From the UHGV virus genome UHGV-1727747: 17,858 bases of DNA; one strand, given 5' to 3'. The position numbers are program-made. Of this stretch, positions 15,001 to 17,858 are shown in pieces. Within the stretch, counting starts at the first letter, position 1, and each line of letters starts with the position of its first letter. The DNA is from a virus.

Positions 15001-17858
15001 ATATTCACCCGTCGGGTATTCAGTGTTTTGATTCTGCTCTGGAGTGTACGAAGCTCAGCCATGTAAAATCCCCGTCATATGGCAATCAGTAAAGGAAATA
15101 AATATGTCATCGAAAAACCGGACCCGCAGAACCACAACCCGCAATATCCGTTTCCCCAATCACATAATTGAACAGATCAACATCGCCCTTGAGCATAAAG
15201 GGTCCGGTAACTTTTCAGCGTGGGTTATTGAAGCCTGCAGGAGAAGGCTGGCAACAGATGCAACGCATCTGCGCCCGGCCAGCATGACAAATAACGAGAA
15301 ATGAACGTTCGGTTTCTTCCACCATCGCACCGGACAGGCGACTATGAGGGGACAACGCCGCGCTCCGTTAACGCGGTAAACCCCGGTGTGTATCGTTTTT
15401 GATTATCCCCGCACACTCGCGCAGAGGAGTCTCCCTGTCGGGCTGCGGTCTCTGTTAATGCAGGAATACGGCGACAATACCGCGCATGGATAATAAGGTC
15501 GCTCAACACACTGGCTGTAATACCATGCGGCATTTAGCGGCATTCATCGTACACTCCACGGTTAGCTCTTCATTCGTGGCATTCACCTGAAAGGTCCGGG
15601 AGTGTAATTGCGTACATTTACCACTGAACGAACCTTCAACAAGAACACGACCACGCTGCAAAATACGGAACGGAATTGTTCCCTGAAAAGGTTCTACGGT
15701 TACCCGTAATTTCTTCATGTATCCTCCGGATAATAAAAAGCCAGCTTAGTGCACTGAGTGCGGATATATTCCTGCGCCCCTTCCAGCTGCTTCTGCATTG
15801 TCATCAACCGTTCTCTGAGGATGAAATAATCCCGTTCAGCGGTGTCTGCCAGTCGGGGGCCGGTTGCATTATCCACGCTGGAGGTGCCGGTGGCTTCACG
15901 CACGGTACCGGGGCAGGTGGCGTTGACCCGCAGGCGCTTACGACCAGCGGCAACATCAGCGCGCAGAGTTTCATTTTCAGCTCTCGCATCGGCTAATTCC
16001 TTCGTGTATCTGGCATCAAGCGCAGCGACATCTCGCTGGCGCTGCTGCATGTCAGTAATAGTGGCATTCGCCAGTTTCAGCTCACTGACTTTTTTATCGC
16101 GCTGCGCTTTGTAGGTGATGGCGTTATCGCGGTAATGATTCAGCCCCAGACTAAGCACACCACAGGCTACCAGCATGACAATAATCACCACACACAGAAC
16201 ACGGTTCATATCACCACCAACGGATTGCCCAGACCAGAACAGCAATGGCCACAATACGAATGGCAAATGCCATTGCCCGAATAAGTTCAGCACTCATCTT
16301 TTTAAAGTTCACGATTTCAGCGCAATGACCAGTTTTGCCAGCCCATACAGCATCGGAGACACAGCAATACCAACAGCCACCCACTTAATAGCAAAAGCCA
16401 GCGCTCTGCTGATGTCATCAGTCACTGTCACCCCAGCAGCCCCGACGAAGACAACATCACCCAGGCGAGGGACAGAAAAAGAGCAACCAGCATTAGTGAA
16501 AATGAAATACCGACAATCACACACAGGACCTTTGCCGGCGTTATGAGTTTGTCTGACATAGCTACCCCTTAATTGCCACAATTAACTGGGATACTACCCA
16601 TAAAAAAGGGATGCTCCAGACCAGCAAAAATTTCCAGTTTGGTAATTGACTAATCATGAGTCGCAACTCCCTAATCAGTTTGCTAAAATCAATCAAGGCA
16701 GCCTCCCATAGCTTACTGCCATAAAAACAAAACCCCGCTTGCTGCCAACAAACGGGGTTTTTACTTTTATTCACTTAGGTTTTGCCAGTTCACAGGACTT
16801 CGTGTTATCCGCCCGCGTTGGCCAACCTCATTTTTCAGCAAAATATTCTGCTTATCTGTCGATTCCCCAGCACGCCAGCGCGCTCTCCTGGTCACGACGG
16901 AATACCTGACCGTAACAGTTATTTGAGCGAATACGGCAGTCTCTGCCACCGTCCTTAATCCACCAGCGAATCGCTTCGCATGCTCCCCTGCGATCACCTG
17001 CATTAATTCGTCTGTAAAACGTCGACGGGAAACACTTACCGGGACCAATGTTGTACGGACAGAATGACGCGATCCCCGCTTTCTGGGGTTCGGTCAATGG
17101 CACTTTGATGTTTTTCTCCACCCATGCCAGCGCCTTATCACGCTCAATGGCGTTAACCCGGTCGCATTTTTCCTTCGACAACTTCATGCCCGGAACGACA
17201 GGTTTGCCATCCACCAGGATGGCACCGCGGCAGATGGTCCAGATACCCGCGCCATCACGGTATGCCGTGGTGTGGTTACCTTCCTTTTCATCCAGAAACT
17301 GGTCGAGAATGTCAGGCGCAGGCGCACCAGCGGCAATCAGCGCCAGAACGGCAGCCGACAGGCCGTATCTGATTTTTGCGTTCATGGATATTTATCAGGA
17401 TTTATCGGTTTCTGAGCCCTGGATATGTTTATCAGTTCCAGCCTGTTGCCTCAGGCTGCTAACAGGTCAATACAATCATGAGGATTATTTATGGACAATA
17501 ACACCATTTCTCTACAGGAGTTGCTCGACAGCATTTCCAGGCTTCGGGAAGACGTGAATACCCTTACCGTCGCCTTCTCATATCTGGCATTCTCAATTCC
17601 AAGGGAACAGATGCAATCAACGCTGGCATCAATCCAGTTTGAATCATGCAATCCCAAATGGTCTCAGGAACAACAAGACTCTTTCAGGCGGCTTGCTGTA
17701 TTACTGGATGAAAAATATGCTGGTAAAATTACCATTTCGGCGGACTCTTCAGAGAACCCGTAATTATTCCCGGTAGTTTTCCTCTGTAGGTTATCAACAC
17801 ATCCTGCGCCTCTAAAATTACGGGGCGCTTTTCCGGCGACTGCTCATCCCCTTCACAT

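Follow-up and report, generated by a model that had tools for sequence, protein, structure and literature searches.

The window, the whole 17,858-nt stretch of the virus genome UHGV-1727747 that was analysed, carries its lysis genes on the minus strand, and profile matches together with gene order identified the cassette as one of the ordinary phage 21/933W type. The endolysin gene R (16852..17385, minus strand) encodes 177 aa and matched PF00959 (E = 9e-24), the phage 21 lysozyme (3hde/3hdf; E = 2e-16), and RrrD (4zpu). The N-terminal segment of the endolysin, YGLSAAVLALIAAGAPA, is weakly hydrophobic (hydropathy 1.74), and the E-x8-D-x5-T catalytic spacing was seen in its translation. By lysozyme family, N-terminus, and motif the protein is a SAR endolysin, and its release from the membrane is predicted. 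The i-spanin gene Rz (15715..16209, minus strand, 164 aa) matched PF03245 (E = 4e-51) and phrog_13 (E = 1e-77), and the o-spanin gene Rz1 (15804..15989, minus strand, 61 aa; PF06085, E = 1.7e-21) is embedded in it. Upstream of the endolysin, the 3′ end of a YdfR/DUF1327 gene was placed at 17729..17858 (minus strand) by mapping CDS 518–862 of a related record, L001, to the window (PF07041, E = 7e-43). A conserved 90-aa ORF lies on the plus strand between ydfR and the endolysin (17491..17763; phrog_2411, E = 1e-58) and carries an annotation in three related records (L001, L002, and L229).

No membrane ORF was found on the lysis strand in 17386..17858. The absence of a holin upstream of the endolysin, which an earlier reading made from the sequence only had pointed out, is correct within the window, whereas records that are 100% identical to it (ON470626 and ST131 chromosomes) bear a class II (P21 S) holin beyond its right edge. 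This holin has 71 aa, begins with the two-Met start MYQM, matched PF04971 (E = 9e-33), and lies ~690 bp upstream of the endolysin, at about 220–435 bp past the window edge; YdfR and the opposite-strand ORF stand between the two genes. Including the part past the edge, the cassette runs from pinholin S through YdfR, the reverse-strand ORF, and SAR endolysin R to the endolysin–Rz slot and Rz/Rz1. These results indicate that a common E. coli prophage of the ST131 type has a standard lysis system, and the claim of a holin-less or broken-holin cassette falls.

The interval between the endolysin and Rz occupies exactly 16210..16851 (642 nt, minus strand), as the sequence-only reading had delimited it, and the terminator-like hairpin reported there is also present. 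The hairpin and its T-run (16719..16761, minus strand; stem 16761..16729), which have the form of a strong intrinsic (Rho-independent) terminator, stand directly 3′ of the endolysin; the 15-bp stem contains 6 G-C pairs, has a free energy of -21 kcal/mol as predicted with RNAfold, is terminator-like when read from either strand, and is kept across several interval architectures. An Rfam search of 15300..17858 gave no match. Three abutting ORFs in different frames, each with one helix, had been described behind the hairpin; they are present, and a fourth, D′, was added to A, B, and C′. The stop-to-start gaps along A, B, C′, D′, and Rz are 2, 2 (or a GTGA overlap), 11, and 1 nt, respectively. A, B, and C′ each contain one 19-residue stretch with a mean Kyte-Doolittle value of 1.9–2.9, D′ likewise has a single hydrophobic stretch, and the transmembrane calls for these ORFs are hydropathy predictions only. 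A chain of four abutting hydrophobic ORFs was reached in 0 of 2000 dinucleotide-preserving shuffles, the longest chain being three ORFs in a single shuffle, and for this reason the arrangement is regarded as non-random. Pfam and NCBIfam scans of all mini-peptides gave no match (Pfam, E≤1), and the four PHROG families that they matched at E values from 6e-5 to 3e-24 (6632, 4906, 1115, and 4493) are all labelled 'unknown function'.

ORF A (16562..16696, minus strand, one predicted transmembrane helix) can be read in a long form of 44 aa from TTG 16696, with the Shine-Dalgarno sequence GGGAGG at 16707..16702, or in a short form of 31 aa from ATG 16657 (16657..16562), behind AGGGAG. The earlier sizes of 31, 43, and 40 codons correspond to 16657..16562, 16559..16428, and GTG 16425/16431..16309; the first of them requires correction, since A most likely starts at TTG 16696, as judged from its sequence features. 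The extended form matched phrog_6632 at E = 1.3e-12, compared with 6e-5 for the short one. The family of A has a conserved length of 44–45 aa in six enterobacterial genera, and Met14, behind AGGGAG, is invariant. A premature stop in A was observed at 5 loci. In one locus (L221), a homologue of A (z = 7.3) lies directly upstream of a PF00959 lysozyme gene and C/D members flank a phrog_920 holin, and in Enterobacter prophages (L234–237) a homologue is flanked by a GH19 endolysin on one side and an i-/o-spanin-like pair on the other.

ORF B (16428..16559, minus strand, 43 aa) begins with an ATG 2 nt past the stop of A, behind AAGGGG, and matched phrog_4906 (E = 4.5e-21). Its helix is the most hydrophobic of the set (mean KD 2.87). 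The B family comprised 103 protein clusters, all from E. coli and most of exactly 43 aa, and B was found in four different interval architectures. The dN/dS value of B, which was obtained from few, recombining alleles, was 0.41 in its own frame versus 1.16 in the overlapping frame; B was frameshifted in 2 alleles. A likeness of B to the Rz helix was considered and is unsupported (shuffle z = 1.9; profile comparison probability <1%).

ORF C′ (16309..16431, minus strand) has two candidate starts, GTG 16425 (38 aa) and GTG 16431 (40 aa), the second of which overlaps the stop of B as GTGA. Its match to phrog_1115 (E = 3e-24) covers profile positions 31–67 only. ORF D′ (16211..16297, minus strand, 28 aa) matched phrog_4493 (E = 3.8e-6) and ends with IRWW; its TGA stop is 1 nt ahead of the Rz ATG, so that GGTGGTGA, which encodes RWW and the stop, also provides the ribosome-binding site of Rz. 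Both ORFs match the C-terminal half only of their profiles, and C and D align with each other at z = 6.8. As read from these alignments, C′ and D′ are paralogues that belong to a 48–60-aa family and are each shortened at the N-terminus. C′ corresponds to residues 23–60, the transmembrane core, of a 60-aa family that has full-length members in E. coli, E. marmotae, and Salmonella, and D′ aligns to residues 24–50 only of a 50-aa D-type relative. The N-terminal part of the family and both of its conserved starts are missing from the C′ and D′ of the window. The transmembrane core is the best-conserved part of the C/D family. Its dN/dS values, measured between truncated and full-length copies and based on few, recombining alleles, were 0.15 for C, with variable sites by codon position of 9/6/19, and 0.26 for D. 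A tblastn search of a D-type peptide against phage records matched the N-terminus alone, the helix being masked by the low-complexity filter. A resemblance of C to pinholin helix 2 gave a shuffle z of 3.7–4.1 and a profile comparison probability of <1%, and is unsupported.

As judged from their sequences, A and the C/D family share one gene plan, which consists of an upstream hairpin, a first start ~30–100 nt further on, an amphipathic extension of 12–13 codons, a conserved internal Met, a single helix after it, and a C-terminus (RWW or K-G/S) that abuts the next gene. The N-terminal extension is strongly basic in C/D and has a net charge of about +1 in A. The Shine-Dalgarno sequence of the internal Met lies within Arg-Leu codons in both families; the Arg codon before this Met is AGG/AGA in 10/10 diverse C/D members, which gives GAGG/GAGA 6 nt upstream of the ATG. 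Both starts may be used in the two families. The comparison of A with the C/D profile (E = 9e-4, probability 23%) is suggestive only of a relationship between them.

Of 5426 complete E. coli genomes, about 590 contain window-type copies and about 2250 contain some part of the interval. A scan by B alignment gave only proteins identical to the window copy, and a degenerate DNA pattern scan supplied the diversity. The ~190 related loci fall into six interval architectures, including Ant–B–Rz, C–B–Rz, A–B–Rz, and D–Rz. PhiR5_1, an apparently complete phage recorded on the host E. coli C, has annotated A, B, and C′. In the wider C/D family, a Salmonella prophage remnant that occurs in >1600 blocks of the assembly index has the gene 2 nt ahead of Rz; in other contexts, the gene overlaps a lysozyme start, follows a PG_binding_1 endolysin ahead of two small lipoproteins, follows a holin_8/holin_3_7/M15 cassette, or lies two genes downstream of a lambda-type holin. 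Relatives of A and C/D often adjoin endolysin, holin, or spanin genes in cassettes composed of non-homologous proteins. In total, an endolysin, holin, or spanin gene is found ≤2 genes away in 6 of the 10 C/D contexts that could be classified and in both of the independent contexts of the A family, where 15–20% is our rough guess of chance. What these loci show directly for A–D is how the genes are built, that they are conserved and under selection, that they move as modules, and with which genes they are associated. The interval is coding in relatives, in addition to the canonical holin that is located past the right edge, and the suggestion of genuine small membrane peptides, one of two offered by the sequence-only reading, is supported by family conservation, purifying selection, and repeated placement beside lysis genes.

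We compared the cassette with known lysis systems. With its SAR-like N-terminus, the endolysin is a homologue of R21 and RrrD, and Rz1 is embedded in Rz, as is usual in the phage 21/933W/Qin type. The lysis genes R and Rz of phage 21 are contiguous or overlapping. The present cassette differs from the phage 21/Qin type by the reverse-strand ORF between ydfR and R and by the terminator and four mini-genes between R and Rz. In the Qin prophage of K-12, the order essQ–ydfR–rrrQ resembles the holin–YdfR–endolysin order of the identical records, whereas rrrQ and rzpQ overlap where the present prophage has the 642-bp slot. In 933W, the slot between the endolysin and Rz is likewise filled, by the 189-aa antirepressor gene ant in place of A; a 44-aa ORF of the B family, which the RefSeq record does not annotate, stands immediately upstream of Rz, and C′ and D′ are absent. 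With this holin–YdfR–endolysin order in K-12 Qin and ant in the 933W slot, the description of the locus as an unusual lysis timing device was overstated. P2 LysA has about 140 aa and several membrane helices, and the proposed likeness to it was not supported, as each ORF has 28–44 aa with one hydrophobic stretch and no family match was obtained.

We consider the interval to be an accessory-gene slot in which A–D are likely late-expressed inner-membrane peptides that modulate lysis, a reading to which we assign a probability of about 0.6 from the sequence evidence. Late expression appears more likely than expression in lysogens. The first start is only 25–35 nt from the hairpin in the window and in two other loci (L004 and L221), and no sigma-70-like site was found on the mini-gene strand; there is neither room for nor a match to a promoter between hairpin and start, and expression in lysogens is therefore unlikely. 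In lytic growth, Q-modified late transcription would pass through the terminator, the four cistrons would be translated in relay with Rz last, and the peptides would enter the inner membrane. There they may modulate the membrane steps of lysis, namely pinholin triggering, SAR-endolysin release, or i-spanin function, and would be dispensable fine-tuners rather than the primary holin. Expression, membrane insertion, and any effect on lysis are inferred; the functioning of the cassette without the slot in relatives, as in K-12 Qin, counts against a role in lysis. A comparable known protein is the releasin gp25 of phage Mu (DUF2730), an accessory membrane protein that is needed for the release of a SAR endolysin and has 99 aa with an N-terminal helix and a 73-aa cytoplasmic domain (PMC9239132). 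Like the peptides as proposed here, gp25 is a single-helix membrane protein other than a holin, its gene lies only a few genes away from that of a SAR endolysin, and it works at a membrane step of lysis. The present peptides, at 28–44 aa, have hardly any soluble part and gave no Pfam/DUF2730 match at E≤1. If A–D tune lysis, they would represent a new accessory class beside the holin–endolysin–spanin scheme, and such tuning would bear on the release of Stx phages because 933W-type phages carry B directly before Rz. The mini-genes are conserved and remain hypothetical or unannotated within one of the best-studied phage gene cassettes, and no mention of these peptides was found in the literature, including general papers on lysis cassettes.

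The principal competing explanation, which we regard as unlikely yet the most serious, is that A–D are late-operon passengers ('morons') unrelated to lysis, with a role in superinfection exclusion, anti-defence, or another membrane function, in a slot that merely tolerates insertions. The slot does carry unrelated cargo elsewhere, namely ant in 933W and a 231-aa gene in PhiR5_1 and one further locus (L010). Moreover, 4 of the 10 classifiable C/D contexts are away from lysis genes: the gene follows tail-fibre genes at prophage ends or belongs to a tail module or a baseplate module. On this count, C/D may be a family of general passengers of late operons; the copy at the tail-fibre end is bracketed by terminators and resembles a discrete insert. 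However, the frequency of lysis-gene contexts given above argues against an unrelated passenger, as does the absence of space for a promoter of its own. The classical moron layout was not observed, since the terminator is upstream of the genes, no promoter-like site is present on the same strand, and the last cistron abuts Rz, to which, as the downstream late gene, the mini-genes are translationally coupled. If the peptides do not tune lysis, A–D would be an example of small membrane passengers that are mis-annotated by gene callers.

A bolder extension of the lysis-modulating reading concerns the two starts. As in lambda S105/S107 and the 68/71 forms of S21, two in-frame starts are conserved in the A and C/D families, and the longer product likewise has extra basic N-terminal residues before the helix. 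It is conceivable, although we think it improbable, that A and C/D form an unrecognised superfamily of mini membrane proteins of Gram-negative phage lysis cassettes, the long and short products of which would be an antagonistic holin/antiholin-like pair timing pinholin firing, SAR-endolysin release, or spanin action; a member might itself be the holin where none was seen nearby, as in two loci (L225 and L228). The families differ from lambda S and S21 in that their starts are 12–13 codons apart rather than 2–3, they have one helix and no charged C-terminal tail, and they lack sequence similarity to any holin family; furthermore, the C′ and D′ of the window are without both starts.

A still less probable alternative to lysis modulation is that recombination left part of the array behind as non-functional debris, most of all C′ and D′ and perhaps also A, and that this part is kept only for the Rz ribosome-binding site and coupling. 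The loss of the N-terminal parts and conserved starts of C′ and D′, the second function of GGTGGTGA at the end of D′, and the existence of frameshifted or truncated alleles (C′ in L006 in addition to those of A and B) agree with this explanation. Furthermore, the ~110 window-type loci are nearly identical to one another, and they are thus uninformative on the selection acting on the truncated forms. On the other hand, short C/D forms with their own ATG recur elsewhere: one of 38 aa (P0216) is present on 56 contigs, and the 28-aa form of D′ is found in another context (L009) with conservative substitutions only. The low dN/dS of the core (0.15–0.26) between truncated and full-length copies and its position as the most conserved part of the family also argue against debris.

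A type I toxin–antitoxin pair under an antisense RNA, with B or one of the other peptides as its toxin, is very unlikely in our view. The size and hydrophobicity are toxin-like, and a weak promoter-like site (9 of 12) on the opposite strand covers the start of B (16553..16582), but such sites occurred at the chance level (2 found versus 3.0 expected), no Rfam family was matched, and B belongs to a coupled operon and is always placed relative to Rz rather than as a stand-alone locus. The proposal that A, B, and C are the remains of a class I three-helix holin broken by two frameshifts in a lysis-defective prophage, which was suggested by a combined length of ~112 aa with three hydrophobic segments and by the lack of a holin inside the window, is hardly tenable, as an intact P21-type holin is located upstream in the identical records, fusions of 112 and 140 aa matched no holin (Pfam, E≤10; NCBIfam, E≤1), no continuous ORF occurred in ~190 loci nor among the 103 and 121 protein clusters, which have sizes of 43 aa and 38–60 aa, and the pieces are independent modules that have their own starts, ribosome-binding sites, and length-conserved families and are found singly and in other orders.

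Two further ORFs overlapping the interval were rejected. The plus-strand ORF of 123 aa at 16175..16546 matched no family and has a composition typical of the antisense of hydrophobic genes. The 90-aa ORF at 16309..16581, which corresponds to phrog_3246, was treated as an over-long gene call, the 5′ half of which overlaps B in the frame with the dN/dS of 1.16.

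The endolysin gene and Rz are separated by 642 nt of the minus strand, and the bounds given in the sequence-only reading (16210..16851) coincide exactly with this interval. The terminator-like hairpin noticed there was found at 16761..16729, where a T-run follows a 15-bp stem, and a hairpin after the endolysin is kept in most related intervals. Four small minus-strand ORFs follow. ORF A (ATG 16657..16562, 31 aa) has AGGGAG 9 nt upstream, and its long form of 44 aa starts at TTG 16696 behind GGGAGG (16707..16702). ORF B (16559..16428, 43 aa) starts 2 nt past the stop of A, behind AAGGGG. 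ORF C′ extends from GTG 16425 or GTG 16431 to 16309 (38 or 40 aa), the latter start overlapping the stop of B as GTGA, and ORF D′ (16297..16211, 28 aa) stops 1 nt before the ATG of Rz. Each ORF contains one hydrophobic 19-residue window (mean Kyte-Doolittle hydropathy, 1.9 to 2.9), and such a four-ORF chain of abutting hydrophobic ORFs was obtained in 0 of 2000 dinucleotide-preserving shuffles of the region. The sequence-level observation of abutting small hydrophobic ORFs stands: all three originally described are present, and the count rises by one with D′, which had been missed.

Database matches place all four ORFs in conserved families, here PHROG families of unknown function. B falls in phrog_4906 (E=4.5e-21) and has 103 protein clusters, from E. 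coli throughout and mostly exactly 43 aa; over 27 distinct DNA alleles, dN/dS was 0.41 in the B frame versus 1.16 in the overlapping frame. The match of C′ to phrog_1115 is confined to the C-terminal half of the profile. Full-length C relatives, found in E. coli, E. marmotae, and Salmonella, are 60 aa long, and their core gave a dN/dS of 0.15, with variable sites distributed 9/6/19 by codon position. D′ is paralogous to C (alignment z=6.8), and its dN/dS is 0.26. The family comprising C′ and D′ (C/D) is small, since only 25 clusters emerged when its profile was run against 1.84 billion representative proteins. C′ and D′ are shortened family copies retaining the helix alone. A, which matches phrog_6632, was at first the weakest coding case: it hardly varies, and 5 loci have a premature stop in it. 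A search with the 44-aa form retrieved proteins of 44–45 aa (MIDFSKLIRELR(L/E)M…LPNWKFLL.W…) from E. coli, Salmonella, Providencia, Citrobacter, Enterobacter, and Klebsiella. Given the conserved families and the dN/dS values of B, the C core, and D′, the mini-genes are very probably genuine small membrane-protein genes and not holin fragments, as one option in the sequence-only reading had it.

The frame overlapping B is sometimes picked by gene callers as a 90-aa ORF (16309..16581, minus strand) that ends as C′ and corresponds to phrog_3246 (E=4e-59); the RefSeq annotation carries a 51-aa version in the same frame. The 5′ half of this ORF lies in the frame with the dN/dS of 1.16, and phrog_3246 is therefore probably built on an over-long gene call.

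A and C/D share a gene plan. Diverse C/D members begin with M-x-(x)-Y-K/R-R/K, followed by an extension of about 12 codons, many of them for basic and hydrophobic residues, that leads to a conserved Met and then (K/D)(N/D)G(L/I)E..AP. The Arg codon two codons ahead of this internal Met was AGG or AGA in 10 of 10 members, so that GAGG or GAGA precedes the internal ATG by 6 nt. The extension is also translated, because synonymous changes are found within it. The A family has the same layout: Met14 is invariant, comes after a 13-codon extension, and has AGGGAG ahead of it. We read the two in-frame starts as yielding a long and a short product in both families. Many C/D and A members end in RWW-stop (CGN TGG TGG TGA/TAA; for example, window 16211..16220, minus strand, and related loci L222, L228, L231, and L005), which spells GGTGGTGA 1–3 nt ahead of the next start irrespective of the gene there (Rz, lysozyme, or a sheath initiator); this C-terminal motif may be shaped partly by its use in ribosome binding. 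In 7 of 13 contexts, a strict search found a G+C-rich hairpin and T-run ahead of the small ORF at a distance of 30–100 nt, and looser matches are visible in most of the others. A terminator upstream of the small ORF is the reverse of the classical moron order. Loci with a hairpin before C/D ORFs, as before A in the window, include L004, L005, L212, L213, L217, L221, L225, L228, and L230.

We read the neighbours of distant family members from their encoding contigs. A C/D gene lies 2 nt ahead of Rz in a prophage remnant of Salmonella that recurs in >1600 assembly-index blocks. In another context, a C/D gene overlaps a lysozyme gene start, and in a phage with a contractile tail (sheath and tube genes) one is flanked by a PG_binding_1 endolysin on one side and a pair of small lipoproteins on the other. 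On one contig, a phrog_920 holin has a C/D-like ORF on each side, followed by a 51-aa hydrophobic ORF and an A-family ORF directly upstream of a PF00959 lysozyme. C/D genes also occur downstream of a holin_8/holin_3_7/M15-peptidase cassette in Stx phages and two genes past a lambda-type holin. An A-family gene of Enterobacter prophages has a GH19 endolysin on one side and, on the other, an i-spanin-like ORF and a lipoprotein ORF that overlap; its slot is the one occupied in the window, although the cassette proteins are non-homologous. A lysis gene was within two genes in 6 of the 10 classifiable C/D contexts and in both A contexts, against a chance rate roughly guessed at 15–20%, and the enrichment looks real but not exclusive. 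The C/D genes away from lysis genes follow tail-fibre genes at prophage ends or lie in a tail module or a baseplate module. These four non-lysis contexts, and unrelated cargo in the same endolysin–Rz slot, support passenger genes without relation to lysis, a reading that we consider fairly unlikely.

The explanation that we prefer, at a probability of roughly 0.6, builds on the gene structure, tight junctions, conservation, and association with lysis genes that these loci show. We infer that the terminator would silence the array and Rz until Q-modified late transcription reads through, and that ribosomes would initiate at the A start and proceed through the successive cistrons as far as Rz. 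The peptides would enter the inner membrane as single helices and adjust some membrane step of lysis, with the membrane-embedded players (pinholin, endolysin SAR segment, and Rz helix) as candidate partners. A role in lysis is itself a tentative assignment. The peptides are dispensable, because Qin lacks such an interval. The nearest analogy is the dual-start holin/antiholin design, from which the mini-genes differ in start spacing, helix number, and the lack of a charged tail. They are not of the P2 LysA type suggested earlier, nor members of DUF2730 (Mu releasin family, PMC9239132), and membership of a holin family was rejected as no such family matched. What remains, in the slot between endolysin and spanin, is a real, conserved, uncharacterised group of mini membrane-protein genes whose plan and neighbours are suggestive.

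That C′ and D′ are recombination debris is improbable; in favour of it, both lack the family N-terminal part and conserved starts, and decayed alleles exist, and against it stand the dN/dS values of the C core and D′. A type I toxin–antitoxin pair is very improbable. GenBank phages, E. coli genomes, and IMG/VR supplied about 190 related loci, and in these the endolysin–Rz interval takes discrete architectures: A–B–C′–D′–Rz (window type), full-length C–B–Rz, Ant–B–Rz (933W), A–B–Rz, long D–Rz (phage GER2), a four-ORF variant (strain 99-3165), and versions with an additional 231-aa gene (PhiR5_1). The units A, B, and C/D shuffle independently, each always with its own start, and fusion of a unit to its neighbour occurred in none of these loci. 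The proposal of a single holin gene broken by two frameshifts can be dismissed almost entirely, as the units are mobile and never fused, neither of two conceptual fusions, A+B+C′ (112 aa) and A+B+C′+D′ (140 aa), hits a Pfam or NCBIfam holin family, and records identical to the right-hand part of the window carry an intact holin. In the 933W locus (L003, ~2349..2495), an unannotated B-family ORF of 44 aa (MISDKLITLVKSLCVLVGISF…) lies between ant and Rz, overlapping the ant stop and ending just short of the Rz start. The slot of strain 99-3165 (L009, ~1661..2210) holds four other small hydrophobic ORFs of 50, 47, 49, and 28 aa; two of them belong to C/D, a further one matches phrog_12997, and the remaining one is without a family.

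The flanking genes are those of a familiar cassette. Endolysin R (17385..16852, minus strand, 177 aa) is a phage lysozyme (PF00959, E=9e-24) whose relatives include RrrD and the SAR endolysin of phage 21 (structures 3hde/3hdf, E=2e-16). It has a weakly hydrophobic N-terminus (MNAKIRYGLSAAVLALIAAGAPAP; mean hydropathy, 1.74) and the E-x8-D-x5-T spacing. Rz (16209..15715, minus strand; PF03245, E=4e-51) contains the embedded Rz1 (15989..15804, minus strand; PF06085, E=1.7e-21). An HNH endonuclease, terminase genes, and head and tail genes follow on the same strand at lower coordinates. A 71-aa ORF (15503..15718, minus strand) overlaps the Rz stop by 4 nt and is entered in records as a hypothetical protein, although it seems to be a piece of some longer gene, its phrog_2571 match being limited to positions 100–165 of a 291-position profile.

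Over the stretch searched, its right-hand part (15500–17858), the window shows 100% identity with Escherichia phage vB_EcoS-783R2 and with prophages in many E. coli chromosomes, mostly ST131. In these records, a 71-aa class II holin (PF04971 "Bacteriophage P21 holin S", E=9e-33), with the MYQM two-Met start typical of S21, is followed by YdfR/DUF1327, an opposite-strand 90-aa ORF, and the endolysin. Projected onto the window, the holin ends about 220 bp past the right edge, upstream of the endolysin and about 690 bp from its start; the window itself closes with 130 bases of the ydfR 3′ end. The order agrees with essQ–ydfR–rrrQ of Qin in E. coli K-12, and according to a published survey, the lytic system conserved among Stx phages consists of pinholin plus SAR endolysin (PMC8136144). 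The missing holin is therefore a window-edge artefact: its absence holds inside the window, where no membrane ORF was found on the lysis strand at 17386..17858, and fails in the identical records. The cassette is of the phage 21/933W/Qin kind, each of its testable defining features having been found, and the atypical lysis cassette with a possibly broken gene is largely explained away.

The reverse-strand 90-aa ORF (17491..17763, plus strand; phrog_2411, E=1e-58) is conserved, shares about 35 nt with the ydfR 3′ end, and is labelled hypothetical or "DUF1823 containing". In many ST131 chromosomes, ISEc52 lies between this ORF and the endolysin (6470..7639 in L002, equivalent to window ~17386..17490) and parts the holin from R–Rz; it is absent from the window and vB_EcoS-783R2. 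Close to the tRNA genes of its prophage, L002 also carries a 43-aa small membrane gene (DUF3927, 2554..2685) that lies upstream of the lysis region, equal in length to B and unrelated in sequence. In another E. coli prophage (L220, 197..2215), the P21-type holin, DUF1327, and the reverse-strand ORF are followed, without a SAR endolysin, by holin_8, holin_3_7, and the M15 peptidase, giving two holin systems in tandem.
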